From assembly GCA_034433695.1 (NCBI GenBank), contig DAOUAK010000139.1, positions 1 to 14,489 on the forward strand: DNA of 14,489 bases. Reading direction: 5' to 3'. The position numbers were made by a program, and so were the translations under genes. Shown here piece after piece: positions 1,790 through 12,895 of this stretch. The DNA comes from Chloroflexia bacterium. GTDB taxonomy: Bacteria; Chloroflexota; Chloroflexia; DTKN01. The notes beneath the pieces were generated by a model. That model was not told where the DNA came from, did no database searches, and saw nothing but the letters and a program-made list of their open reading frames with translations. Positions within the stretch are counted from its first letter, which is position 1. Each line of letters begins with the position of its first letter.

Positions 1790-1797
1790 AAGGAGGG

Positions 1798-2313
1798 TCA
1801 GGAGGAAGGTTCGGTTTCTTTGCCGATGAGCCTGGGGGGTAGCCCGGTCGGTTCCCGCCAGAAGCGGTCTGCGGAAACCTGCTTGGACCAGCGCCGGGGA
1901 TCTTGCCGGCTACCGAGTGCCTGGAGGAGGGCCGAGACGACCTCGCCGATGCCCTGGTAGTAGCGGTCGGTCTGCGGAGAAGGTTGCTGGCAGGCCTGGG
2001 CGGAAATGGCCGAGCGATAAACGGCGGCGACGATGTTCTCGATGTCCTCCAGCCACCAGTGTTCGGTGCCCGAGGTCGTCCTTGGCCTTTTCCGCGAGGA
2101 AGTTTGGCGGGGAATCTGGTCGAGTTGTTCCAGGGGTAGCCCGAAGGCCAGCATGAGGGCCTGAGTAGCCACCCGGCATCCCCAGCGGTAGAAACGTTCC
2201 TCGGAGGTCGTCGGGCTGTTGTCCCCGGTATCCGGTTCGGGCAATATTTTGGCGGCATAAATCGCCAGAAGGATGTTACGGATGTCCTCGCCACTCCAGA
2301 TTTCCGAACCCAT
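1798..2313 (-). CDS. Hypothetical protein of 171 aa containing an internal tandem duplication of a roughly 55-aa module
   Basis: ATG at 2313 with AGAGGA RBS 6 nt upstream. Repeat 1 is IWSGEDIRNILLAIYAAKI...ERFYRWG...ALMLAFG. Repeat 2 is WWLEDIENIVAAVYRSAI...DRYYQGIG...ALLQALG. The protein-like composition contrasts with the overlapping garbage frame 1614..2294. No recognisable family. Confidence 0.6.
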   Translation of the reverse strand: MGSEIWSGEDIRNILLAIYAAKILPEPDTGDNSPTTSEERFYRWGCRVATQALMLAFGLPLEQLDQIPRQTSSRKRPRTTSGTEHWWLEDIENIVAAVYRSAISAQACQQPSPQTDRYYQGIGEVVSALLQALGSRQDPRRWSKQVSADRFWREPTGLPPRLIGKETEPSS

Positions 2314-2421
2314 CGGTCATCCTCTTGGAACCGGTCCGAAAATAGGCGTGGGACGGTCTGAAGAGGCCGTCCGGGCAGGTTAAAAAGCCTGCCCTACAAG
2401 TTTTCGGTATCTCCGGAAAAT

Positions 2422-2450
2422 AGTGTAGCACATCTTTTCGACAATGTCAA
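2422..2450 (-). promoter_or_regulatory. Sigma70-like promoter on the minus strand (TTGACA-17-TACACT) for the 171-aa gene. Its -35 overlaps the RBS and first ATG of the divergent + gene.
   Basis: Minus strand reads ttgaca (2450-2445), ttgtcgaaaagatgtgc (17 nt), tacact (2427-2422). The roughly 100-nt 5'UTR contains two hairpins: GGGCAGG..CCTGCCC at about 2373-2395 and GGACGG..CCGTCC just downstream on the minus strand. Confidence 0.45.
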
Positions 2451-2461
2451 GGAGGAAAAAG

Positions 2462-3019
2462 ATGTTGGGCTCCGATTGGCTGGAATACTTCCCTGAACAA
2501 CTCCTCACCCTGGATGCCATGCGGACGATTTTCCGACAGGTGCGCGAAACCTTTACCTGGTCCTGGCCGAACAAGCGGGCCGAGCGGGAGTGGCGCCGGC
2601 TGGCCGGGATGGTCCTGGAGGCCCTGGAGGAGGCGTTCATCTGGGGAGCGGTGGTCAAAGGACGGTGGGTGGGCCGGATTCATGACCGCCTGGCCGCCCT
2701 GGAAAGCGGGAAAGGAAAGGCTTCGGTCCGGACGGTACGGGAGGTCCGGGCCGCCTACATCACTTTCCTGGACCGGCTTTACGGGGCCATCTTTCGGCAC
2801 GTGCTCGCGCATATGCCAACGGCCCTCCCCACCGAGGTCGGGTATTTCCACCTCAGTCAGGTGGTTGTCTTCCGTTACGCTCGGCTGCGGGACGCGGAGA
2901 AGCCGGCCCTGGAGGAACTTTTGGAGTTTCTCTATCTGGGCGGCCCGCGTTTCGAGATGGTGTTCTCCTGGCAGCCGCCGGGCGGAAAGGAAGGGGAAAC
3001 CCTCCTTCGGCTCCGATAA
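2462..3019 (+). CDS. Hypothetical protein of 185 aa, transcribed divergently from the 171-aa gene
   Basis: ORF track 2444..3019. I prefer the ATG at 2462 (MLGSDWLEYF..) because GGAGG at 2451-2455 has 6-nt spacing. Protein-like composition with no recognised motif. Stop TAA at 3017-3019. Confidence 0.6.
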   Translation: MLGSDWLEYFPEQLLTLDAMRTIFRQVRETFTWSWPNKRAEREWRRLAGMVLEALEEAFIWGAVVKGRWVGRIHDRLAALESGKGKASVRTVREVRAAYITFLDRLYGAIFRHVLAHMPTALPTEVGYFHLSQVVVFRYARLRDAEKPALEELLEFLYLGGPRFEMVFSWQPPGGKEGETLLRLR

Positions 3020-3097
3020 GGGCCATCCGTGCCCTTTCTTGTCCGTGCCGGCCAAGCGTGCAAGCCATAAGGGGGAAAGTTGATGCCGACATCCTAC

Positions 3098-3126
3098 TTG
3101 ATAAACCCCCGTCTTCATGGTAAAAT
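3098..3126 (+). promoter_or_regulatory. Near-consensus sigma70 promoter TTGATA-17-TAAAAT upstream of the MNT-HEPN cassette
   Basis: ttgata at 3098-3103, 17-nt spacer aacccccgtcttcatgg, taaaat at 3121-3126. AAGGAGG follows at 3128-3134 but has no well-spaced start codon; the nearest is a TTG at 3136, 1 nt away. Confidence 0.5.
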
Positions 3127-3403
3127 AAAGGAGGTTTGCAGGTCACTGCGTTCTATTCCGGACGACGCGGCGCACTGGACCGGGCAACCCATGGTTTTCT
3201 GGTCGCGGCGACAGCCGGCGGTTTCTATGCGAATACGGGAAGCAACGAGTTCATCTACCGCGATCGGTTTCAGCACAGCAGTTGGCTGGCGATACCCATC
3301 CTTCTCTGGACGACTTCACCCGGCACGATGGAGTTCGAGGACGGGACTAGACCTGCGCGACCCGCCGTGGAAGTTACTGAAACCGCTAATCCGGTGGTAA
3401 GCG

Positions 3404-3727
3404 ATGGAAGAGACTCTAAGGGAAGTCAAACGGATCATTCAGGAAGAGGTGGAAGGCGCAGGTTACCGGGTGCGACGTCTCCTCCTTTTCGGCAGCCGGG
3501 CCCGCGGAGAGGCCCGGCCTGACAGCGACTGGGACTTTTATGTGATCATCGACGCCGATGCCGATCGCCAAACCCGCCACGCTATTGCCTCCCGCATCTG
3601 CTGGCGGCTGGCCTTGGAAGGAACCGTCGTTGACGTCTTTGTGCAATCAGAACGCGTGGTGCGGGAACGGGAAGGAGATGTCGGCAGCCTCACGTATTAT
3701 GCGCTGAAAGAGGGTGTCGCGCTATGA
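3404..3727 (+). CDS. Minimal nucleotidyltransferase (MNT, pol-beta superfamily), MntA-like antitoxin partner of HEPN
   Basis: Diagnostic motif LFGSRARGEARPDSDWDFYV (GS-x9-11-DxD). 107 aa. A 4-bp ATGA overlap with the downstream HEPN gene. Confidence 0.85.
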   Translation: MEETLREVKRIIQEEVEGAGYRVRRLLLFGSRARGEARPDSDWDFYVIIDADADRQTRHAIASRICWRLALEGTVVDVFVQSERVVREREGDVGSLTYYALKEGVAL

Positions 3728-4128
3728 GTGAGGCCACCGTTCGGCGTTGGATTCAAAAGGCTGAGAACGATCTCAAGATCGGCGAGGACGAGATGTGTAT
3801 GCCGGATCCGGCGACCGATATGGTGTGCTTCCACATGCAGCAGTGCGCAGAAAAATACCTTAAGGCATTCTTGATCTTCCACCGCCAGGAACCTCCCCGG
3901 ACGCATCGCTTGGCGGCGTTGATTGCGCGATGTGGGCAGATCGATCCTTCGTTCGTCGAGATGATGGAGTGGGGGGTGGATGACTTGACTCCCTATGCAA
4001 CCGAGATGCGTTACGCGGAGGAATTTGCTCTCCCGGATCTCGAAGAAACCCAAAGGGCCATCACTCTGGCGAAACGCGTTCGGACCTTGGTGCTGGAGAG
4101 GCTGACGCAGAGGGGATTGAGCCTTTAG
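3724..4128 (+). CDS. HEPN-domain protein (HepT-like toxin partner of MNT)
   Basis: 134 aa. KYLKAFLIFHRQEPPRTHRLAALI matches the HEPN (PF05168-type) conserved R-x(4-6)-H / P.TH.L..L region. It is translationally coupled to the MNT gene. The cassette is about 55% GC against about 67% in the flanks. Confidence 0.8.
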   Translation: MSEATVRRWIQKAENDLKIGEDEMCMPDPATDMVCFHMQQCAEKYLKAFLIFHRQEPPRTHRLAALIARCGQIDPSFVEMMEWGVDDLTPYATEMRYAEEFALPDLEETQRAITLAKRVRTLVLERLTQRGLSL

Positions 4129-4197
4129 GAGATGTCGCCTATGCACACCCTTCACCCGGTAGCCCCTTCCGGGCATCGCCCGGCCGGGACCGTCGCC

Positions 4198-4440
4198 TTA
4201 TGGCGTCGGCGTGACGACCGGCGTGGGAGGGGCCGGCATCGTGGGTGGGACGGGGGTCAGGGTCGGGATGAGGAACCGCCCCGGCACCTCGGTCCAGGGC
4301 AACGGCGTGGGTAGGGGAGCCTTCCAGGCGCAGGAGCGGGGCCAGATAACCACCAGAATCAGCACGGCCAGAACGACGGCCACCAGGGCCAGGAGTTCCA
4401 GCCGGCCGCTCCAGGAGTTGTTCGCTTTCCGTGTACCCAT
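4198..4440 (-). CDS. Small (80 aa) single-pass membrane protein with a Pro/Thr-rich C-terminal tail
   Basis: ATG at 4440 (minus) preceded by GAAGGAGA 5 nt upstream. MGTRKANNSWSGRLELLALVAVVLAVLILVVIW is one TM helix; the tail is PLPTPLPW..PTLTPVPPTMPAPPTPVVTPTP. It is the C-terminal part of the longer spurious ORF 4198..5040 and convergent with the HEPN gene. Confidence 0.45.
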   Translation of the reverse strand: MGTRKANNSWSGRLELLALVAVVLAVLILVVIWPRSCAWKAPLPTPLPWTEVPGRFLIPTLTPVPPTMPAPPTPVVTPTP

Positions 4441-4501
4441 ACGGTCTCCTTCTCTTGCGTTTTGCGCTGCCAGTGTACCACGGGGCAGGAGGGATGTCAA
4501 G

Positions 4502-4530
4502 TTGCACCGGGCCGAATTTTGTGGTATCAT
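4502..4530 (+). promoter_or_regulatory. Sigma70 promoter with extended -10 (TTGCAC-17-TGgTATCAT) driving the leader of the ECF operon
   Basis: ttgcac at 4502-4507, 17-nt spacer, TG at 4522-4523, tatcat at 4525-4530. Predicted TSS about 4537, which is 250 nt upstream of the ecfA1 ATG. Confidence 0.55.
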
Positions 4531-4660
4531 GACTTTGCCACCGACCCCCGGGTGGGCGGTGAGCCAGGGCGGCCGGCGGCCGCAAGTGCAGGCATAGTTC
4601 AGGATCGTCGCTGGGATCGCAGGGCGACCGAGACGGCGAGGTGGCGATGGAAAGAGCATC

Positions 4661-4689
4661 ATCCTCCGGGGAGCCCTGGAGGATTTTTT
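4661..4689 (+). terminator. Rho-independent terminator inside the ECF-operon leader
   Basis: ATCCTCCGGG (4661-4670), loop GAGC, CCCTGGAGGAT (4675-4684). This is a 10-bp stem with one G-U, followed by TTTTTT (4684-4689). It lies about 125 nt downstream of the predicted TSS and about 100 nt upstream of ecfA1. Confidence 0.6.
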
Positions 4690-4786
4690 GTGGGGATCTC
4701 CCCCTTTTCCCCGGCCGGTTGGCCGCTTCTCCCCTCGTCTGCCGACGTCTCCCTTCCTTCCCCGGAGAAACAGGTAGGCGTGGAGG

Positions 4787-5650
4787 ATGGACGAACCCCT
4801 GATCTGCGTCCGGAACCTGCATTTTGCGTACCCTGCCGGCGGGTCTCTCCGGCCGGCGCTCAACGGCATTGACCTGGACATCTGGCCGGGCGAGTATATC
4901 GCCCTCATCGGCCCCAACGGCTCCGGCAAGACAACTCTGGCCCGCCACCTTAACGCCCTGCTTCTGCCCACCGAGGGGGATGTCTGGGTACAGGGAATGA
5001 ACACAAAGGACCCACACTGCTGGCAGGCGATTCGCCGCACGGTGGCAATGGTCTTTCAGAACCCGGACAGCCAGGTCGTCGCCACGGTGGTGGAGGAGGA
5101 CGTCGCCTTCGGCCCGGAGAACCTGGGGGTGCCGGAGGAGGAGTTGCGTCGCCGGGTGGACTGGGCGCTGGAGGTGGTCGGCCTTTCGGCACAGCGGCAT
5201 CGTGCGCCTCAACACCTCTCCGGTGGCCAGAAGCAACGGCTGGCCCTGGCCGGGGCGCTGGCCATGCTGCCCCGCTGTCTGGTGCTGGACGAGGCCACCT
5301 CGATGCTCGACCCGGCCGGCCGGTGGGCCGTCTTGGAGATCGTCCGGGAACTCTATCATCGGGGAATGACCGTCGTTGCCATTACCCAGGATATGGAAGA
5401 GGTTGTCTGGGCTGAGCGGGTCGTCGTCATGGCCGAGGGACGCATCGTCCTTCAGGGTTCGCCCCGCGAGGTGCTGGCGCAGGAGGAAAGGCTGTATGCC
5501 CTGGGCCTGGACGTTCCGCCGCTGGTCCGGCTTTCCCGCGCCTTACATGCCCGTATTCCCGACTTCCCGGACGGCCTGCTGACCCCGGCCGAGTTTGTCG
5601 CGGCCGTCCGGGAGCGTATCCACAGAGGCAGACGATGGACCGAGCCCTGA
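4787..5650 (+). CDS. ecfA: ECF transporter energy-coupling ATPase, first copy (EcfA1/CbiO-like ABC ATPase)
   Basis: Walker A GPNGSGKTT, ABC signature LSGGQKQRLALAGAL, Walker B LVLDEATSMLD. C-terminal region typical of EcfA. 16-bp overlap with the next gene. Confidence 0.9.
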   Translation: MDEPLICVRNLHFAYPAGGSLRPALNGIDLDIWPGEYIALIGPNGSGKTTLARHLNALLLPTEGDVWVQGMNTKDPHCWQAIRRTVAMVFQNPDSQVVATVVEEDVAFGPENLGVPEEELRRRVDWALEVVGLSAQRHRAPQHLSGGQKQRLALAGALAMLPRCLVLDEATSMLDPAGRWAVLEIVRELYHRGMTVVAITQDMEEVVWAERVVVMAEGRIVLQGSPREVLAQEERLYALGLDVPPLVRLSRALHARIPDFPDGLLTPAEFVAAVRERIHRGRRWTEP

Positions 5651-6489
5651 TCGAGGTACACGACCTCCACTATACCTATATGCGCGGGACCCCCCTGGAG
5701 ACGGCCGCCCTCCGCGGCGTCCACCTTGTCGTCCGGGCCGGCGAGATCGTCGGCCTCATCGGGCCAACCGGATCGGGCAAGTCCACCCTTCTCCAGCACC
5801 TGAACGGCCTTTTACGCCCCCAGCGCGGTTCGGTGCGTGTGCTGGGGGAGGACCTCGCCGACCCCCGCGTGGACCTGCGCGACATCCGGAGACGGGTCGT
5901 CCTTCTCTTCCAGAACCCGGAGGATCAGATTTTCGAGCGCTATGTGGCCGACGACGTGGCTTTCGGGCCGCTGAGTTTGGGCCTGCCGCGGGAGGAAGTG
6001 CAGGTGCGGGTGCGCCGGGCGATGGAGGCGGCCGGCCTGCCCTCTTCCTTCGATAACCGGCTCACCTTTGCCCTCAGCGCCGGCGAACGCCGTCGGGTGG
6101 CGCTGGCCGGCGTGCTGGCGTTGGAGCCGGAGGTGCTGGTGCTGGACGAACCGCTGGCCGGGCTGGACCCCCGTGGCCGCCGGGAACTCCTGGCCCTGCT
6201 TCGGGAGTGGCATCGGCGGGAGGGCCGGGCCATCGTCTGGGCCTCCCACTCGATGGAGGAGATCGCCGGCCTGGCCGACCAGGTTTACGTCCTGGTCGAG
6301 GGACGGGTGGTGCTGGAGGGGACCACCCGGGAGGTATTCGCCCAGGGCGAGGCCCTGGCCCGGTGGGGGTTGGAGGTGCCGGTCGTGACCGGGATGTTGA
6401 GGGAACTGGCCCAGGCCGGCCTGCCGGTGCGCGGCGACGCGCTCACTCTGGAAGAGGCCCTCTCCATCCTGGAGGAGGTGCTTCGATGA
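5635..6489 (+). CDS. ecfA2: ECF transporter energy-coupling ATPase, second copy (EcfA2)
   Basis: Walker A GPTGSGKST, signature-like LSAGERRRVALAGVL, Walker B LVLDEPLAGLD. Stop TGA at 6487-6489 overlaps the ATG at 6486 of the next gene. Confidence 0.9.
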   Translation: MDRALIEVHDLHYTYMRGTPLETAALRGVHLVVRAGEIVGLIGPTGSGKSTLLQHLNGLLRPQRGSVRVLGEDLADPRVDLRDIRRRVVLLFQNPEDQIFERYVADDVAFGPLSLGLPREEVQVRVRRAMEAAGLPSSFDNRLTFALSAGERRRVALAGVLALEPEVLVLDEPLAGLDPRGRRELLALLREWHRREGRAIVWASHSMEEIAGLADQVYVLVEGRVVLEGTTREVFAQGEALARWGLEVPVVTGMLRELAQAGLPVRGDALTLEEALSILEEVLR

Positions 6490-7340
6490 GCGATTTTGAG
6501 GTATTGCGCTCCCTCTCTTTCGGCCAGTACCTGCCTGCCGGCTCGCCTCTGCACCGGCTGGACCCCCGGGTCCGATTGACCGGCATCCTCCTGCTCATGC
6601 TGGCGCTGATGGCCTGTGCCCGGCTGACCATCGCCTTTCTGGGGCTGACGCTGGTACTGGGCCTGTTCGGCCTGGCCCGCCTCCCGCTGGGCTATGGACT
6701 CCGCGGACTCCGGCCTCTTCTGCCCCTCTTTGGCTTCGTCCTGGTCCTGCAGCTGCTCTTTTACCCCCATGAAGCCGCCGTTGCTGAAGGCAGCGCCGTC
6801 GTGTGGCAATGGGGACCGATCCTCATCAGCGCCGCCAGCCTGCTCGATACCGCCTCCATTCTGCTGCGCATGGTCGCCATCGCCCTTCTTCTGACGCTCC
6901 TCACCGCCATCGCCGATACCACGGACCTGGTCCACGCCGTGGAGGGGATGTTGCGGCCCCTGCAGCGGCTACATCTGCCGGCCCACGAACTGGCCCTGAT
7001 GGTAGCGATCACGCTGCAATTTATCCCCCTTCTGGGGCGGGAACTGGAACGTCTGCTCAAGGCCCAGGCAGCGCGGGGGGCCGATTTCGGCCGCGGGCGG
7101 GGCAACTTTTTCACCCGTATACGCCGGATGCTGCCGCTCCTGATTCCCCTTTTCCTCGCCGCCCTGCGTCGGGCCGAGGAACTGGCCCTGGCGATGGAGG
7201 CACGGGGGTATGCGGGTGGACGAGGACGGACATCCCTGGTGCGTCTACAGATGCGGCCGGCCGACTTCCTGGCCCTGGCCCTATCCCTGGCCATCACGGC
7301 CCTGGTATTCTTTCTGGATCGAGGGGTTATGCCGCTCTAA
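6486..7340 (+). CDS. ecfT: ECF transporter transmembrane T component (EcfT/CbiQ family)
   Basis: ORF track 6207..7340. The true start is ATG 6486 (MSDFEVLRS..), which overlaps the ecfA2 stop. Multi-TM protein with the characteristic Arg-rich coupling helices (ARGADFGRGRG, LRRAEELALAMEARGY). Confidence 0.85.
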   Translation: MSDFEVLRSLSFGQYLPAGSPLHRLDPRVRLTGILLLMLALMACARLTIAFLGLTLVLGLFGLARLPLGYGLRGLRPLLPLFGFVLVLQLLFYPHEAAVAEGSAVVWQWGPILISAASLLDTASILLRMVAIALLLTLLTAIADTTDLVHAVEGMLRPLQRLHLPAHELALMVAITLQFIPLLGRELERLLKAQAARGADFGRGRGNFFTRIRRMLPLLIPLFLAALRRAEELALAMEARGYAGGRGRTSLVRLQMRPADFLALALSLAITALVFFLDRGVMPL

Positions 7341-7407
7341 AACGCGAGAAGGTGTAAACCCGACCCAACTGTCTGACCCGTATCTTGAAGAAGAAAAGGA
7401 GGTTGCC

Positions 7408-8250
7408 ATGAAAATCACCACCCGTCAGATCGTCGTTACTGCCGCCCTGAGCGCCATCGCTATCGTGCTGGGTGCTACCCGCGTCGGCTTCATCCCCTTT
7501 GTGCTGGGCATCGCCATCACCGTTATGCACATCCCGGTGATCATCGGAGCCGTCCTGGAGGGCCCACTGGTGGGTACGATGATCGGCTTCCTCTTTGGCC
7601 TGTTCAGCCTCATCTGGGCCTTTGTCGCACCCACCGGGCCTGGAGACATCTTCTTCCAGAACCCGCTCATCTCCGTCCTGCCGCGCCTGTTCATCGGCAT
7701 CCTGGCCTACCTGGCCTACCGGGCGCTTCGGGAGCCTCGGCCCTGGAAGGTCTATATCGCCGCCGGGGGAATCCTCGCTGTGGTGGCCATCGCCCTGGTC
7801 CTGACCTACGCCACCCCCCTTCTACCCGACTATGCCAGGGCCGTGGAGCAGGAGCCCGGGCAAATCGTCCCCACCTGGCAGATCATCGTGCTCGTCGCGC
7901 TGGCCATCCTGGTGGTCGTCCTGGCCGTCGGCGTATACCTGGCCTTTCGCCACCGGGTGCTGGAACGCTGGGGGGAAATTCTGGCCATCGGCGCGGCAGC
8001 CGTCGTCGGCACGCTGACCAATACGGTGCTGGTCCTGGGGAGCATTGGGGTAGTGGGCCGGCTGGAGCCGCTGGCCGGGCTGGGCAAGGTGCCTCCTCTT
8101 CCCTGGAGTTTCCTGCTGGCCGTCGGTCTGACCAACGGCATCCCCGAGATCGTCGCCGCCGTCGTGATCACCGTCGCCGTGGTCGCGGCCTGGAAGCAGA
8201 TCGAGTTCGGTTATCGCGGTGCCCGCAACATGCGCACACGCAACACGTAA
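7408..8250 (+). CDS. ECF transporter substrate-specific (S) component. By context (coaX immediately downstream) a candidate pantothenate S component (PanT-like). Unusually long at 280 aa with about 8 predicted TM segments.
   Basis: ORF track 7210..8250. Start ATG 7408 (MKITTRQIVVTAALSAIAIVLG..) with GGAGG at 7398-7402. The N-terminus resembles ECF S components (BioY/PanT style). The C-terminal half adds extra hydrophobic helices and an RNMRTRNT tail. Confidence 0.6.
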   Translation: MKITTRQIVVTAALSAIAIVLGATRVGFIPFVLGIAITVMHIPVIIGAVLEGPLVGTMIGFLFGLFSLIWAFVAPTGPGDIFFQNPLISVLPRLFIGILAYLAYRALREPRPWKVYIAAGGILAVVAIALVLTYATPLLPDYARAVEQEPGQIVPTWQIIVLVALAILVVVLAVGVYLAFRHRVLERWGEILAIGAAAVVGTLTNTVLVLGSIGVVGRLEPLAGLGKVPPLPWSFLLAVGLTNGIPEIVAAVVITVAVVAAWKQIEFGYRGARNMRTRNT

Positions 8251-8279
8251 CGCGCACCACGCAACCCGCACCACGCAAC
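8224..8279. repeat. Short degenerate tandem repeat GCAC(C)ACGCAAC, two exact 12-mers and one degenerate copy, spanning the S-component stop and the coaX upstream region
   Basis: gcaccacgcaac at 8254-8265 and 8268-8279; gcacacgcaacac at 8233-8245. Confidence 0.5.
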
Positions 8280-8292
8280 ACGGAGGACTCCC

Positions 8293-9078
8293 ATGCTCCT
8301 CTGCCTCGACATCGGCAACACCAACATCGTCCTGGGTCTGTACCAGGGGGAAAGGTTGCTCCACCACTGGCGGATTGCCACCGAGCGCGAGCGTACCACC
8401 GACGAGTACGCCGCCCTCTTCCTGACGCTTCTGGCCCATGCCGGCCTGGCGCATTCATCCATCCACGGTGCCGCCATCGCCAGCGTCGTCCCTCCCCTCA
8501 CGGGGGCCTTTGTGGGCCTCTGTCGGCGCTACCTGGAGGTGGACCCGCTGGTGGTGGATGCCGGCGTGCGTACCGGCGTGCGCCTGCGCATCGAGAACGC
8601 CCGCGAGGTCGGGGCCGACCGGGTGGTCAACGCCGCTGCCGCCTTCCGGCGCTACGGTGGGCCGGCCTGCGTGGTGGACTTTGGCACGGCTACCACTTTC
8701 GACGCCATCTCCGCCGAGGGCGATTACCTGGGCGGCGCCATCGCCCCGGGCATCGCCATCGCGGCCAAGGCGTTGACCGAGCGCACGGCCAAACTGCCCC
8801 AGGTGGAACTTGTCCCTCCCCCCCAGGCCATCGGCCGGAACACCGTTCAGAGTATGCAATCGGGCATCCTCTTCGGCTATGTGGGCCTGGTGGAGGGGAT
8901 GGTGGCCCGCTTCCGGCAGGAACTCGGTCCGGAGATGCGGGTCATCGCTACCGGCGGGCTGGCCGAACTCATCGCCCGGGAGACCGACGTCTTCCAGGCG
9001 GTGGACCCCTGGCTGACCCTGGAGGGCCTGCGCCTTATCTACGAACTGAACCGGGGGGAAAAGGCCTCCGGCCGGTAG
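8293..9078 (+). CDS. coaX: Type III pantothenate kinase (CoaX/Bvg accessory factor family)
   Basis: N-terminus MLLCLDIGNTNIVLGLY, plus GADR..VN and VDFGTATTFD acetate/sugar-kinase fold motifs. GGAGG at 8282-8286 is 6 nt before the ATG. 261 aa. Confidence 0.9.
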   Translation: MLLCLDIGNTNIVLGLYQGERLLHHWRIATERERTTDEYAALFLTLLAHAGLAHSSIHGAAIASVVPPLTGAFVGLCRRYLEVDPLVVDAGVRTGVRLRIENAREVGADRVVNAAAAFRRYGGPACVVDFGTATTFDAISAEGDYLGGAIAPGIAIAAKALTERTAKLPQVELVPPPQAIGRNTVQSMQSGILFGYVGLVEGMVARFRQELGPEMRVIATGGLAELIARETDVFQAVDPWLTLEGLRLIYELNRGEKASGR

Positions 9079-9280: not shown

Positions 9281-9694
9281 TTAGCCCGGAACGGCCTTGA
9301 GCGGGTTGGCTCCCAACTTCTGCACCCGCTCGGTCATCTCCTGCACCGCCGCAGCGAAGGAATAGCCCTGCGAACCGGTCACAAAAAAGATTTCCACCCG
9401 TTCCCCGCCCAATCCCACCTCGTCCAGGATTTTCTTGCTCCGGCCGACCCGCTTTTCGGCGCGCAAATTGCCTTCCAGGTGATGGCAGGTGCCCTTGGTG
9501 CAGGCCACCACCATGACCGCGTCGGCCCCCTGTTCCAGGGCTTTGAGGATGTAGAGGACATCCACCTTACCGGTGCAGGGAAGTTTGACCACCTTGACGT
9601 CCGCCGGATACTGGATGCCGGTGGTGCCGGCCATATCCACCGAAGTATAGCCACAGTAGATGCAGGTAAAGACCGTGATCTCGGGCATTTCCAT
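9281..9694 (-). CDS. mvhD: MvhD/FlpD-like iron-sulfur protein (methyl-viologen-reducing hydrogenase delta-subunit family)
   Basis: MEMPEITVFTCIYCGYTSVDMAG...VVKLPCTGKVDVLYILKALEQGADAVMVVACTKGTCHHLEGN carries the conserved Cys pattern of MvhD. Start ATG overlaps the hdrA stop (TGATG) and is preceded by an AAGGGGGAAA RBS. The ORF track's longer 9281..9943 frame is upstream read-through. Confidence 0.8.
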   Translation of the reverse strand: MEMPEITVFTCIYCGYTSVDMAGTTGIQYPADVKVVKLPCTGKVDVLYILKALEQGADAVMVVACTKGTCHHLEGNLRAEKRVGRSKKILDEVGLGGERVEIFFVTGSQGYSFAAAVQEMTERVQKLGANPLKAVPG

Positions 9695-12600
9695 CACTTT
9701 CCCCCTTCTTCTGGAAGCCAATCCCCCAAAACGGCCATTTCGGGGACGATGATCTGCTCGTCCCGGTAAAGCGTCAACTGGATGGCCTTGGCCGGACACT
9801 CCCCGGTGCAGGTGCCGCAGCCCTGGCAACGGCCCGGTTCGATATAGGCCGCCCCCCGAAGGCCGCCCACGCCGGTGCGCGTAGGGTCGATGACCGGGAC
9901 GTCGAAGGGGCATACCCGCACACAGGTCAGGCAGCCCACACACTTGTCAGGGTCCACCACGGCCGCCACCCCGCCGACTTCCAGGACGTCCCGGGAAAGG
10001 ATGGTCAGGGCCCGGCCGGCCGCCCCCTGCGCCTGGGCGATGGCCTCTTCGATGAACTTGGGGTAGTGGGCCATCCCGCACAGGAAGATGCCCTCGCGCA
10101 GAAAGTCTATGGGGCGCAACTTGATGTGGGCCTCCATGAAGAAGCCCTCCGGTGAAAGGGGAACCCCTAAAACCCTGCTCAGGTGTTCCGTGCTGGGGTC
10201 CGGCTGGACGCTCATGCTCAGCACCAGCGCGTCCGGGTGGATCACCAGTTTCTCCCCCAGCGAGAGGTCGGTAGCCCGCACCTCCAAGCGGCCGTCTGTC
10301 GCCTGCACCTGCGGGGGATTTTCCTCATCGTAGCGCACAAAGAGCACCCCCTGCCGCCGGGCTTCGGTATAGTACTGCTCGCGGAAGCCGTAGGTGATTA
10401 GGTCCTTGTAGAGGACATAGATGCGCGCCTTGGGGTTGAGCCGCCGGATCCGGAGGGCATTCTTCACCGTGTTGGTGCAACAGATGCGGCTACAATAGTC
10501 GTAAGGGGCGTCGGGCGGCCGTACACATTGGATCATCACCACCGTGTTCATCTGGGCCACCCGGCCGGGGTTGACCAGGATCAGGCGCTCCAATTCCTGC
10601 TGGGTCATCACCCGCTCGTGTTGGCCCAGGAGGTAGACCGAACCGTGAAATTCCTGCCCGCCGATAGCCACGATGGTTACTCCGTGCTCAACCCCGACCC
10701 GATGCCGGCGGGCCGGATCGTGGCGATGGACCTCGATGGTGGAACGAAAGTTGCCCACAAAGCCTTCGTGGCGCACCACTTCGCTGTCGGTATACACGGT
10801 GATGCGCGGTTCCTGCAGGACCTGATGTACCAGGGAAAAGAGGTAGGCTTGTGGGTCGGCCCCTTCGGCCGTAGAGTAAAGGGCGCGGACGTGGCCGCCC
10901 AGGACATCGCTCCGCTCGACCAGGGTGACGGGGTAGCCGGCGGCGGCGATGGTCAGGGCAGCGTTGATTCCGGCGATACCGCCCCCGATCACCAGAGCCC
11001 GCTTGGCCACACCCACCGGGGTGCGGCGCACCGCCTCCAGCCGGCGTGCCCGGGCCGCGGCCATCCGCACCAGTTCCCGGGCCTGGCGGGTGGCCGCCGC
11101 CGGCGCTTCGCGATGCGCCCAGGCGCACTGGGAACGGAGGTTGGTCATCTCCAGGAGGTACGGGTTCAGGCCGGCCTGCCGCAGGATGTTCTGGAAAAAG
11201 GCCTCATGCGTGCGCGGACTGCAGGCCGCGACGACCACCCGGTTCAACCCCTGCTCCAGGATGGCCTGGCGGATTTTGGCCGGAGATTCGCCGATGCAGG
11301 CGTAATCCATTTCCTCGACATAGACCACATCCGGCAGGGTACGGGCGTAGGCGGCTACGGCCGAGGTATCCACCGTGCCGGCAATTTCGCGGCCGCAGCG
11401 ACAGAGAAAGAGGCCCACCCGGGGGGCTTCCCCGGAGATGTCCCGTTCCGGAGGATATGTCGGGGGTCTGGTCGCCGTGCCGGCCACATCGGCCAGGAGT
11501 TCCATACAACGGGCCGCCGCTGCGCTGGCCTCGGCCACCGTTTCGGCGATCTCCTTAGGGCTGGAAAAGGCCCCGGCCACAAAGATGCCCGGCCGGTTGG
11601 TGTCCACCGGGGTGAATTTGCCTGTAAGACAAAAACCATACTCGTTCAGGGCAATCCCCAGTTCCTGGGCCAGGGCTACGGCCTGCAGCGGCGGTTCCGA
11701 GCCGACCGAGAGCACCACCAGGTCGAAGCGTTCCTCATGCAGTTGCCCCTTTTCGTCCTGATAGCGGAGGAACAGGTCATGGGTAGAAGGGTCTTCGCGG
11801 ATGTTGGAGATACGGCAACGGGTATAGCGGACGCCGTAGAGGTCGCGGGAACGGATAAAGTAGGCGTTGTACTCCTTGTTGAAGGTACGTTCATCCATCA
11901 TAAAGATATGGCATTCGGCTTCTGGGTCGCGCTGGCGGGCCAGGACGGCCTCTTTGGTGGCGTACATACAACAGATAGAGGAACAGTAATCATGCTGGCG
12001 GTCGCGGGAACCGACACATTGGAGCCAGGCGATCTTCTTGGGAGGCCGACCGTCGGAAGGCCGGCGGGCCAGCCCCTCCGTCGGGCCCGAGCGGCTGACC
12101 AGCCGCTCGAATTGCAGGGAGGTGACCACATTGGGATAGCGCCCGAAGCCCAGTTCTTCGCTGAGAAGTGGGTTGTAGAGCGTAAAGCCGGGGGCCAGGA
12201 TAATGGCCCCGACCTCGACCGTTTCCTCCCAGGGTTCTTCCTGGAGGTTGATGGCCCGGGTGGGGCAAACCTCCTGGCACTTTCCGCAACCTTCGCAATA
12301 AGGCCCCTTGTCCACCAGATACACATCGGGCAGGGTACGCGGGGAGACCTTGTAAACCGCCCGGCGGGCGCTCATGCCCAACTGGAACTCGCTGGGGAGT
12401 TCCACCGGGCAGACCCGGGCGCACTCCCCGCAACTGGTACAGCGCGCCACATCCACATAGCGTGGGTAGTGGCGCAGACGCACATGGAAGTGGCCCGGCT
12501 CTCCTTCGACCTGGCTGACCTGGGTCAACGTCATGACCCGGATGTTGGGGTGAGTGCTGTGGTCCAGGAAGACGTAAGAGATGGCCGGCCGGGTGCAACC

Positions 12601-12810
12601 GTAGCCGTGTTCGGCCGTGCCCCGGCAGAGGACACAGTCATGGGAGGGAAACATAAACCCCAACTGGGCGATCTTGCCCCCCAGGGCCGGGGTGGATTCG
12701 ATCAAATAGACCTTCAGGCCGGCCTCGGCCAGGTCGTAGGCGGCGCGCATCCCGGCCACGCCGCCCCCTACGACCAGAACCGCCCCCACTTTTTTCCGAA
12801 GTTCTGTCAC
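9694..12810 (-). CDS. hdrA: Giant (1038 aa) HdrA-like flavo-iron-sulfur protein. Domain order: HdrA module 1 (FAD domain with inserted 2x[4Fe-4S] ferredoxin), internal MvhD-like domain, HdrA module 2, C-terminal 2x[4Fe-4S] ferredoxin.
   Basis: Two dinucleotide-binding motifs (VLVVGGGVAGM and ALVIGGGIAGI). Two HdrA signature regions (IAWLQCVGSRD..YCSSICCMY and VVMIQCV..YDYCSRICC). Four CxxCxxCxxxCP ferredoxin motifs. Internal LFLCRCGREIAG..VVVAACSP resembles MvhD. GTG start at 12810 with GGAGG 9 nt upstream. Confidence 0.85.
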   Translation of the reverse strand: MTELRKKVGAVLVVGGGVAGMRAAYDLAEAGLKVYLIESTPALGGKIAQLGFMFPSHDCVLCRGTAEHGYGCTRPAISYVFLDHSTHPNIRVMTLTQVSQVEGEPGHFHVRLRHYPRYVDVARCTSCGECARVCPVELPSEFQLGMSARRAVYKVSPRTLPDVYLVDKGPYCEGCGKCQEVCPTRAINLQEEPWEETVEVGAIILAPGFTLYNPLLSEELGFGRYPNVVTSLQFERLVSRSGPTEGLARRPSDGRPPKKIAWLQCVGSRDRQHDYCSSICCMYATKEAVLARQRDPEAECHIFMMDERTFNKEYNAYFIRSRDLYGVRYTRCRISNIREDPSTHDLFLRYQDEKGQLHEERFDLVVLSVGSEPPLQAVALAQELGIALNEYGFCLTGKFTPVDTNRPGIFVAGAFSSPKEIAETVAEASAAAARCMELLADVAGTATRPPTYPPERDISGEAPRVGLFLCRCGREIAGTVDTSAVAAYARTLPDVVYVEEMDYACIGESPAKIRQAILEQGLNRVVVAACSPRTHEAFFQNILRQAGLNPYLLEMTNLRSQCAWAHREAPAAATRQARELVRMAAARARRLEAVRRTPVGVAKRALVIGGGIAGINAALTIAAAGYPVTLVERSDVLGGHVRALYSTAEGADPQAYLFSLVHQVLQEPRITVYTDSEVVRHEGFVGNFRSTIEVHRHDPARRHRVGVEHGVTIVAIGGQEFHGSVYLLGQHERVMTQQELERLILVNPGRVAQMNTVVMIQCVRPPDAPYDYCSRICCTNTVKNALRIRRLNPKARIYVLYKDLITYGFREQYYTEARRQGVLFVRYDEENPPQVQATDGRLEVRATDLSLGEKLVIHPDALVLSMSVQPDPSTEHLSRVLGVPLSPEGFFMEAHIKLRPIDFLREGIFLCGMAHYPKFIEEAIAQAQGAAGRALTILSRDVLEVGGVAAVVDPDKCVGCLTCVRVCPFDVPVIDPTRTGVGGLRGAAYIEPGRCQGCGTCTGECPAKAIQLTLYRDEQIIVPEMAVLGDWLPEEGGK

Positions 12811-12849
12811 AGAAGTGCACCTCCGTCGTGAAGTCTTTCACCAGGAAAT

Positions 12850-12878
12850 ATTATACGCCCGGGGGAAAGAAATGTCAA
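12850..12878 (-). promoter_or_regulatory. Perfect consensus sigma70 promoter TTGACA-17-TATAAT on the minus strand driving hdrA-mvhD
   Basis: Minus strand reads ttgaca (12878-12873), tttctttcccccgggcg (17 nt), tataat (12855-12850). Predicted TSS about 33 nt upstream of the hdrA GTG. Confidence 0.55.
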
Positions 12879-12895
12879 AAGAGGAATGCACCTAT

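Follow-up and report, generated by a model that had tools for sequence, protein, structure and literature searches.

An hdrA-mvhD gene pair in 14,489 nt of DNA from a Chloroflexia bacterium (contig DAOUAK010000139.1 of assembly GCA_034433695.1) probably encodes the electron-bifurcation core of a heterodisulfide reductase (Hdr)-type methylene-tetrahydrofolate reductase (MTHFR) of the Moorella and Sporomusa kind, split here into two transcription units. We put the probability of this reading at roughly 0.6. The whole 14,489-nt stretch is referred to as the window, and it is the part of the source genome that our searches covered. In this Chloroflexota lineage one unit would be hdrA-mvhD, present in the window, and the other metV-metF-hdrCB, located elsewhere in the genome. 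The core itself would pair a self-heterodimeric double HdrA with the [2Fe-2S] adaptor MvhD. The two genes are:

9694..12810, minus strand: hdrA-like gene for a 1038-residue fused double HdrA; GTG start at 12810, TGA stop at 9696-9694
9281..9694, minus strand: mvhD, 137 residues, FlpD family (Pfam PF02662, E = 2e-42; NCBIfam VhuD, 172 bits)

In the proposed mechanism, the long chain would fold over to imitate the HdrA homodimer in asymmetric form, with one electron path instead of two, and would dock both MvhD and a fused HdrC-HdrB protein (HdrCB). HdrCB would wire HdrA to MetF or MetVF and thereby to the methylene-/methyl-tetrahydrofolate (THF) couple (E0' ~ -200 mV). Ferredoxin would serve as the low-potential partner at a ferredoxin domain inserted in the first HdrA module, and a third partner would reach the complex through MvhD. 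Transcription would start from the unit's own strong promoter, probably gated by a Rex-like redox-sensing repressor. We infer the association of the 1038-residue subtype with a MetF system from its genes and from the context of its relatives; as far as the sequence shows, electrons could flow either way, reducing methylene-THF or oxidizing methyl-THF.

The pair had earlier been described, in an original prediction made from the letters of the window, as an orphan with unknown electron donor and acceptor. That label does not fit, as the architecture is that of a known enzyme, the Hdr-type MTHFR, and relatives carry metV-metF-hdrCB nearby or on another contig. The separate mvhD of the original prediction is real: its product covers the PF02662 profile from end to end (1-123 of 123; 144.5 bits against a cutoff of 22.3), and its ATG overlaps the TGA of hdrA (gTGATGg). 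Translation of mvhD is thus predicted to be coupled to that of hdrA through the TGATG overlap.

Domain architecture of the double HdrA

The 1038-codon reading frame has no interruptions, and its product carries two thioredoxin reductase (TrxR)-like flavin adenine dinucleotide (FAD) modules with HdrA cysteine signatures. This part of the original prediction agrees with Pfam, with the alignment to a methanogen HdrA and with the invariance of the cysteines. Pfam puts the starts of two Rossmann-type FAD domains at residues 11 and 604, with two ferredoxin-type dicluster domains at residues 119-184 and 950-1012. The methanogen HdrA (PDB 5ODC, chain A) matches with E = 1.5e-171 in three stretches. 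Residues 147-499 of 5ODC HdrA, comprising the TrxR-like domain and inserted ferredoxin domain, align with residues 12-375; residues 2-174, made up of the N-terminal domain and the first part of the TrxR-like domain, align with residues 461-633 (E = 8e-47); and residues 467-641, with the last part of the TrxR-like domain plus the C-terminal ferredoxin domain, align with residues 840-1019. The resulting domains, all encoded on the minus strand, are:

11476..12789, residues 8-445: module 1, TrxR-like FAD domain with no N-terminal domain (5ODC alignment)
12583..12639: Cys197-equivalent loop D58-C59-V60-L61-C62, followed by a 13-residue insertion (5ODC alignment, invariant columns)
12235..12462, residues 117-192: inserted ferredoxin domain of module 1 (Pfam Fer4_10 at 119-183; 5ODC alignment)
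11041..11430, residues 461-590: HdrA N-terminal ('MvhD-like') domain of module 2, with C470, C472, C505 and C530 (5ODC alignment)
9991..11025, residues 596-940: module 2, TrxR-like FAD domain (Pyr_redox_2 at 605-681; internal BLASTP)
9766..9969, residues 948-1015: C-terminal ferredoxin domain (Fer4_21 and Fer4_7 at 950-1012), with C957-C967 and C995-C1005

Module 1 has the FAD glycines G15-G20 and contains the cluster motif CVGSRDx6CSSICC, whose cysteines C265, C276, C280 and C281 are of the HA4 type and correspond to C386, C399, C403 and C404 of 5ODC. Its E235 and K286 correspond to E356 and K409 of 5ODC. Such a Glu/Lys pair at the flavin is a signature for recognizing bifurcating flavins (PMC9430772). 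The alignment equates C62, in the DCVLC loop, with Cys197 of 5ODC HdrA, and the inserted ferredoxin domain holds two CxxCxxCxxxCP motifs (C124-C134 and C172-C182).

The whole module 2 unit extends over residues 461-1015, from the N-terminal domain through the C-terminal ferredoxin domain. Its FAD glycines are G609-G614, its cluster motif is CVRPPDx5CSRICC (C762, C773, C777 and C778) and its flavin signature is E741/K783. Parsing with domain profiles had been suggested as a check on whether this second module is HdrA-like, and Pyr_redox_2 at 605-681 together with the 5ODC stretches indicates that it is. In an internal BLASTP comparison the two modules share 27% identity (E = 5e-19), with a gap over residues 117-193; the inserted ferredoxin is cleanly deleted from module 2, and its loop matching DCVLC contains no cysteine. 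The combination that marks the HdrA superfamily, an FAD GxGxxG together with a CxG/xSRDx(5-8)CSxxCC motif, therefore occurs twice in one protein. The domain order of Hdr-type MTHFRs, a TrxR-like domain followed by an MvhD-like domain, a TrxR-like domain without inserted ferredoxin and a C-terminal ferredoxin domain, is also found.

The domain between the modules had been read as MvhD-like. The domain is there, and the literature does call the HdrA N-terminal domain 'MvhD-like' (PMC9430772), but it is not an additional MvhD. Residues 461-590 align end to end with the HdrA N-terminal domain (5ODC residues 2-130), and a true extra MvhD domain in mid-protein was rejected on this ground; the 25 top-ranking Pfam families listed for the protein did not include FlpD. 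The count of [4Fe-4S] motifs also changes, from six to seven predicted sites: two each in the inserted and the C-terminal ferredoxin domains, one in each of the two TrxR-like domains and one in the N-terminal domain. Two FAD sites are predicted. No GltD or Fer4_20 domain was found in the protein, either by Pfam scan or by alignment with a 1512-residue paralogue described below.

Conservation of these sites is nearly complete. Across 60 homologues, all eight HdrA-signature cysteines, the four cysteines of the N-terminal domain, the sixteen ferredoxin-type cysteines, the FAD glycines, C62, E235, K286 and E741 are invariant, and K783 is nearly so (at least 90%). The protein scores below the NCBIfam cutoffs for both HdrA2 (NF040770; 855 versus 1100 bits) and HdrA (NF041778; 622 versus 1400), and hence is a homologue, not an equivalog, of coenzyme B-coenzyme M heterodisulfide reductase subunit A.

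In methanogen HdrA, the inserted ferredoxin domain is the ferredoxin-docking site and the C-terminal ferredoxin domain is the entry facing MvhD. In the window protein the former occurs in module 1 only and the latter in module 2 only. The losses are likewise complementary: module 1 has C62 and lacks an N-terminal domain, and module 2 has the N-terminal domain and lacks Cys197. Complementary modules, and the idea of a self-heterodimer, have been described for fused HdrAs (Chadwick et al. 2022, PMC9012536). The 5ODC alignment and internal BLASTP thus support the original proposal that the polypeptide is a covalent pseudo-heterodimer of two HdrA modules with an inserted ferredoxin in just one of them.

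Structure prediction, put forward as a further check, gave a confident AlphaFold2 model from an alignment of the 60 sequences (mean predicted local distance difference test score (pLDDT) 84.4, predicted template modeling score 0.87). A pseudo-dimer packing would be consistent with these data. The best Foldseek matches of the model in the PDB are methanogen HdrA chains (E = 1e-50), and no double HdrA structure was found by sequence or by Foldseek in the PDB copy searched. The sole long segment of low confidence (pLDDT below 50), residues 50-76, is the Cys197-type loop. Directly after the Cys197 equivalent lies a family-specific 13-residue insertion, RGTAEHGYGCTRP (residues 63-75; 12583-12621, minus strand), which is absent from canonical HdrA and from the 1512-residue GltD-type paralogue. 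Within it, H68 and C72 are invariant in the 60 homologues, and the insertion may supply an extra ligand at the interface cluster.

Genomic context in relatives and alternative readings

The architecture is not rare. A protein search returned at least 120 clusters of about 1030 residues with 96-100% query coverage and 58-93% identity, and most of the source-named clusters are labeled Chloroflexi or Anaerolineae. A species-level genome scan confirmed at least 589 species genomes with relatives, most of them Chloroflexota; among the 80 loci kept, a few are labeled Deltaproteobacteria or Deferrisomatales. To compare neighborhoods, open reading frames were called in 85 related loci and the window and clustered by all-against-all BLASTP, and recurrent families were annotated with Pfam. 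The annotated families were MvhD, MetV, MetF, HdrCB, CBS, Pterin_bind, RACo and FAD_binding_2. No family resembling aldehyde:ferredoxin oxidoreductases (AOR; BamB-type) was among them, no search aimed at AORs having been made.

The search for the fused architecture and its conserved neighbors, which the original prediction had recommended, was informative. Among the 70 loci with at least 600 bp of downstream sequence, mvhD lies directly 3' of hdrA in 67. In 29 of the 44 species-level loci whose downstream flank reaches 8 kb or more, metF (PF02219) lies on the same strand; metV (PF12225) usually precedes it, and a gene for an HdrC-HdrB fusion of about 480 residues (Fer4 and two CCG domains) usually comes next. 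Colocalization of hdrA and mvhD with metV, metF and hdrB/C, absent from the window, is thus found in 29 of 44 relatives. In six loci metV-metF comes after hdrA-mvhD and no second large HdrA intervenes, and five of these also have hdrCB; metV-metF follows directly in L021, L035, L057 and L074, and 5-6 kb downstream in L039 and L071. Two loci, L035 and L057, contain two complete metV-metF-hdrCB sets, one per HdrA type, and the set adjoining the 1030-residue type is slightly closer to the MetF and HdrCB of the window's clade.

The other HdrA type is represented by the 1512-residue paralogue, which is collinear with the window protein (44% identity over residues 8-183 and 49% over residues 172-1037) and whose GltD insert of about 470 residues falls inside the inserted ferredoxin domain. 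In locus L012 (13700-18238, plus strand) a GltD-type double HdrA of about 1500 residues is likewise of the Moorella type, with the GltD module set into its ferredoxin domain. In 27 of the 44 loci the genes run in the tandem order hdrA (1030 residues)-mvhD-hdrA (about 1500 residues, GltD)-(mvhD)-metV-metF-hdrCB.

In the window's own clade the system appears to be dispersed. Relatives at 82-93% identity have only the hdrA-mvhD unit and its promoter in common with the window; the shared stretch spans window positions 9292-12881, at up to 87% nucleotide identity (L004 and L006), between unrelated flanks. The genomic surroundings of the cassette differ in each of the five relatives compared (L001, L004, L005, L006 and L008). 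No evidence of a mobile-element origin of the cassette was seen in the window, although flanking repeats were not searched for.

The partner genes take several positions in this clade. In L001-L003 and L008, metF-hdrCB lies 4.3-6.6 kb downstream of hdrA on the opposite strand, and in three clade members metV-metF-hdrCB forms a stand-alone operon. A search with the HdrCB of the former loci retrieved a matching clade at 78-86% identity followed by a drop to about 57%, mirroring the pattern for HdrA. In the metagenome-assembled genome (MAG) GCA_964613665.1, contig CAZTIG010000008.1 carries a stand-alone hdrA-mvhD whose HdrA is 84% identical to the window protein, and contig CAZTIG010000025.1 carries a stand-alone metV-metF-hdrCB operon. 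Since the partner genes are on a separate contig of a close relative, the system of this lineage is better described as split than as partnerless. By the original prediction, partner genes immediately outside the operon in a complete genome would count against it; the finding comes close to this, with the partners in a related MAG and on another contig. Annotators who meet an 'orphan' hdrA-mvhD in Chloroflexota are therefore advised to consider it jointly with a metV-metF-hdrCB operon elsewhere, not as a new enzyme without partners.

Several points weigh against assigning hdrA-mvhD to a split MTHFR. Where the tandem order occurs (27 of 44 loci), the double HdrA of about 1500 residues, with its GltD/NfnB-like NAD(P)H module, stands between hdrA (1030 residues)-mvhD and metV-metF-hdrCB, so that MetF may there be served by an HdrA other than the 1030-residue type. 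Nine of the 44 loci resemble the window in that mvhD alone follows hdrA and nothing related comes after it. The partners' presence in the window's own genome is deduced from relatives, and GCA_964613665.1, being a MAG, could contain binning errors. Finally, the Hdr and MvhD proteins of Sporomusa ovata did not co-purify tightly with MetVF (PMC9430772).

Some of the same observations would suit an autonomous HdrA-MvhD hub, independent of MetF, that bifurcates or confurcates electrons with ferredoxin and meets its high-potential partner, another enzyme or a membrane component, through MvhD; the proximity of metVF-hdrCB would then be owed to the GltD-type HdrA. The intervening GltD-type HdrA of the 27 loci and the nine loci with mvhD only are expected under such an arrangement, as is a two-gene unit with its own conserved promoter that is the sole part common to relatives 87% identical to the window, and S. 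ovata MvhD is mostly membrane-associated (PMC9430772). However, the six loci with metV-metF after hdrA-mvhD, directly in four of them, have no second large HdrA to account for that proximity, and L035 and L057 allot one full set to each HdrA type, with the set beside the 1030-residue type slightly nearer to the clade's MetF and HdrCB. Moreover, no other conserved neighbor is found in the window's clade, and an HdrA without HdrBC has no known catalytic output site. On balance the hub is possible, though on the unlikely side.

A further proposal defines the 1038-residue protein as a ferredoxin-linked, NAD(P)H-independent Hdr-type MTHFR subtype, or else a free-standing HdrA-MvhD hub, in which a single asymmetric chain has two bifurcation-competent flavins and a His/Cys insertion at the interface cluster, and which in Anaerolineae teams with or replaces the NAD(P)H-type double HdrA on one MetVF-HdrCB. 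Taken as a whole we consider this rather unlikely. If true, it would offer a natural simplified system for finding the second redox partner of Hdr-type MTHFR.

It is very unlikely that the ferredoxin-domain and GltD types of double HdrA together form one larger complex with two linked bifurcations, of which the window organism would keep half or encode the other half elsewhere. The tandem order of both types before metV-metF-hdrCB and the E/K signature at both flavin sites would fit, and a two-step bifurcation proposed for the HdrA-like BamE of the Bam complex is quoted in PMC9430772. Yet the idea is drawn from gene order, L035 and L057 have a metV-metF-hdrCB set per HdrA type, which suggests isoenzymes, and none of the loci of the window's clade showed a GltD-type HdrA within 10 kb, a targeted search not having been made.

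Lastly, an assembly error that fused two hdrA genes, or a pseudogene left over from a broken operon, would account for the unusual length and the absence of neighboring partner genes but can be dismissed, given the unbroken frame, the invariant cofactor ligands (K783 at least 90%), the conserved promoter and ribosome-binding site, the confident AlphaFold model and, above all for the joining artefact raised in the original prediction, at least 120 clusters of equal length and relatives in at least 589 species genomes.

Two other conserved neighborhoods were observed upstream of hdrA. Locus L019 (1188-9875, plus strand) and 12 other loci have a cluster encoding an HdrCB-like protein, a single-module HdrA (563 residues), MvhD, a Cys-rich protein of 371 residues, for which no Pfam match was found, a Fer4 protein (243 residues) and an FAD_binding_2 flavoprotein (548 residues). 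Locus L014 (2667-8292, plus strand) and about ten others, several of them from Anaerolineae, encode a RACo-type corrinoid activator and a pterin-binding methyltransferase, along with a malic-enzyme-like gene of about 477 residues that was identified by eye only. The corrinoid and pterin genes hint at a link to methyl-group (corrinoid/THF) metabolism.

Promoter, candidate operator and neighboring genes

Three elements precede hdrA, all on the minus strand:

12850..12878: sigma-70-type promoter TTGACA-17 nt-TATAAT, 12/12 consensus match
12826..12843: candidate Rex-type operator, sequence TGGTGAAAGACTTCACGA, downstream of the -10 box and upstream of the Shine-Dalgarno
12820..12824: Shine-Dalgarno GGAGG, 9 nt 5' of the hdrA GTG, read from sequence

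The original prediction had pointed out the perfect promoter, and the match indeed covers all 12 positions. TTGAC and TATAA(T) are kept at the same spacing in six relatives whose upstream flanks are otherwise unrelated, making it very likely that the promoter is real. The inference of high constitutive expression is now doubtful, as it is weakened by the Rex-type palindrome located between the -10 box and the ribosome-binding site. This inverted repeat, TGGTGAAAGACTTCACGA, spans about +1 to +18 of the predicted hdrA transcript and agrees at 12 of 14 positions with the Rex operator consensus TTGTGAA-N4-TTCACAA as given in PMC2883068; its core also fits CRP/FNR-type sites. The core GTGAA-N4-TTCAC is exact and was the sole match in the window in a search permitting one mismatch. 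Both the repeat and the Shine-Dalgarno GGAGG are kept in L004 and L006.

A relative with 55% identity (L080) has an independent 13/14 site at 3811-3828, which lies in the intergenic leader some 15 nt upstream of the ATG predicted for hdrA. In 1.41 Mb of related loci there are five sites of at least 12/14, three of which fall in hdrA upstream windows against 0.09 expected; these three represent two independent lineages only. At this position other members of the clade carry palindromes of a different sequence, such as TGTGCC-N4-GGCACA in L005. The pattern suggests that the hdrA promoter is gated by a redox-sensing Rex-like repressor, with the palindrome as a candidate operator and a lead to follow.

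The transcription unit is flanked by two unrelated genes:

8293..9078, plus strand: coaX, type III pantothenate kinase (PF03309), convergent, 3' of mvhD
12957..>14489, plus strand: polA, with 5'-3' exonuclease domains, divergent, upstream of hdrA

The promoter lies in the 147-bp gap between hdrA and polA. As originally stated, the operon is bounded by coaX and polA, and no hdrBC, metF/metV, flx, mvhAG or fdh genes are present in the 14.5-kb window. A scan of the window detected no intrinsic terminator 3' of mvhD, Rfam and tRNA scans across the whole window gave no matches, and GC content is unremarkable.

Further from the pair, the stretch at 4787-9078 (plus strand) includes, immediately 5' of coaX, the genes of an energy-coupling factor (ECF) transporter: two ABC ATPases, a CbiQ-type T component and an S component. 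Together with coaX, this suggests a unit for pantothenate uptake and phosphorylation. A nucleotidyltransferase (PF01909) and HEPN (PF05168) gene pair at 3404-4128 (plus strand), with a 4-bp overlap, is typical of a toxin-antitoxin module. Positions 4129-4786 and 1790-3400 contain no convincing gene, just overlapping open reading frames typical of high-GC sequence, and a 191-residue frame at 2444-3019 had no Pfam match.

Comparison with known Hdr systems

The physiological second electron partner of Hdr-type methylene-THF reductase has been unresolved since 2014, and the question bears on energy conservation in organisms with the Wood-Ljungdahl pathway, acetogens among them. In the overview by Buckel and Thauer (PMC5861303), the Moorella complex is entered with an unknown second acceptor. 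A compact two-gene subtype as widespread as this one, with relatives in at least 589 species genomes, could suit expression and cryo-electron microscopy of a double HdrA. Beyond the partner question and the structural target the locus is ordinary and would not surprise a specialist. Clusters of hdrA-mvhD-metVF with fused hdrBC have already been reported from marine Anaerolineae (Sewell et al. 2017, PMC5736913).

One comparison is with the methanogen HdrA of the HdrABC-MvhAGD complex (5ODC; Wagner et al. 2017). All four of its domain types have homologues in the window protein, the cluster ligands and FAD motifs are kept, and both have MvhD as a partner. However, methanogen HdrA is a single chain of about 650 residues that forms a symmetric homodimer with 12 clusters and 2 FAD, whereas the window protein is one chain with 7 predicted clusters and 2 FAD sites. 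Neither hydrogenase nor CoM-S-S-CoB chemistry would be expected of it.

Fused or tandem HdrAs of anaerobic methanotrophic archaea (ANME), namely HdrA3/4, 5/6 and 12/13, show the same complementarity, one unit having the N-terminal domain without Cys197 and the other Cys197 without the N-terminal domain, and have been read as built-in heterodimers that break the two-fold symmetry of HdrA2 (PMC9012536). Compared by description, the order differs: the N-terminal half carries the N-terminal domain in the ANME fusions, while in the window protein the Cys197 module comes first. The ANME hosts are archaea, and the neighboring genes are FdhAB-like and HdrD. Another double HdrA, BamE of class II benzoyl-CoA reductase, is encoded in clusters with bamB and bamCDFGHI, a clustering not seen among the annotated recurrent neighbors.

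Another comparison is with the 942-residue HdrA of S. ovata, which has no GltD domain, no N-terminal ferredoxin domain and one E/K signature (Kremp et al. 2022, PMC9430772). Both are double TrxR-like HdrAs without GltD and with two FAD sites, and in both the C-terminal part consists of an MvhD-like domain, a TrxR-like domain without inserted ferredoxin and a C-terminal ferredoxin domain. In pull-downs, the S. ovata protein interacts with MvhD, HdrB and MetF (PMC9430772). The S. ovata N-terminal module lacks a ferredoxin domain, giving five clusters and the E/K pair in one module, whereas the window protein keeps the inserted ferredoxin and has seven predicted clusters and E/K in both modules.

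But for one insert, the window protein matches the form found in the Hdr-type MTHFR of Moorella (MetFV-HdrABC-MvhD; Mock et al. 2014, as described in PMC9430772 and PMC5861303). The 1487-residue HdrA of M. thermoacetica is described as having an N-terminal ferredoxin domain and a TrxR-like domain interrupted by GltD, followed by an MvhD-like domain, a TrxR-like domain without inserted ferredoxin and a C-terminal ferredoxin domain; both of its modules carry the E/K signature, and eight clusters and three FAD are reported for it (PMC9430772). The window protein shares the order of TrxR-like domain with ferredoxin, MvhD-like domain, TrxR-like domain and C-terminal ferredoxin domain, the two E/K signatures and the adjoining mvhD, and its relatives cluster with metV-metF and hdrB/C; this likeness was judged through the 1512-residue Chloroflexota paralogue (collinear, 49%) and the published domain description. 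It differs in lacking the GltD-like FAD/NAD(P)H/[4Fe-4S] insert of about 470 residues, and so has no obvious NAD(P)H site, and in having 1038 residues, seven predicted clusters and two FAD against the 1487, eight and three of Moorella. In addition, the window hdrA is transcribed apart from metVF and hdrBC, and hdrC and hdrB are fused in its lineage. By its predicted domains, the window protein is thus a Moorella form without GltD, placed between the Moorella and S. ovata types. The kind of enzyme is already known, and what is particular here is the subtype, with its ferredoxin domain kept and no NAD(P)H module, and the split organization of the genes.

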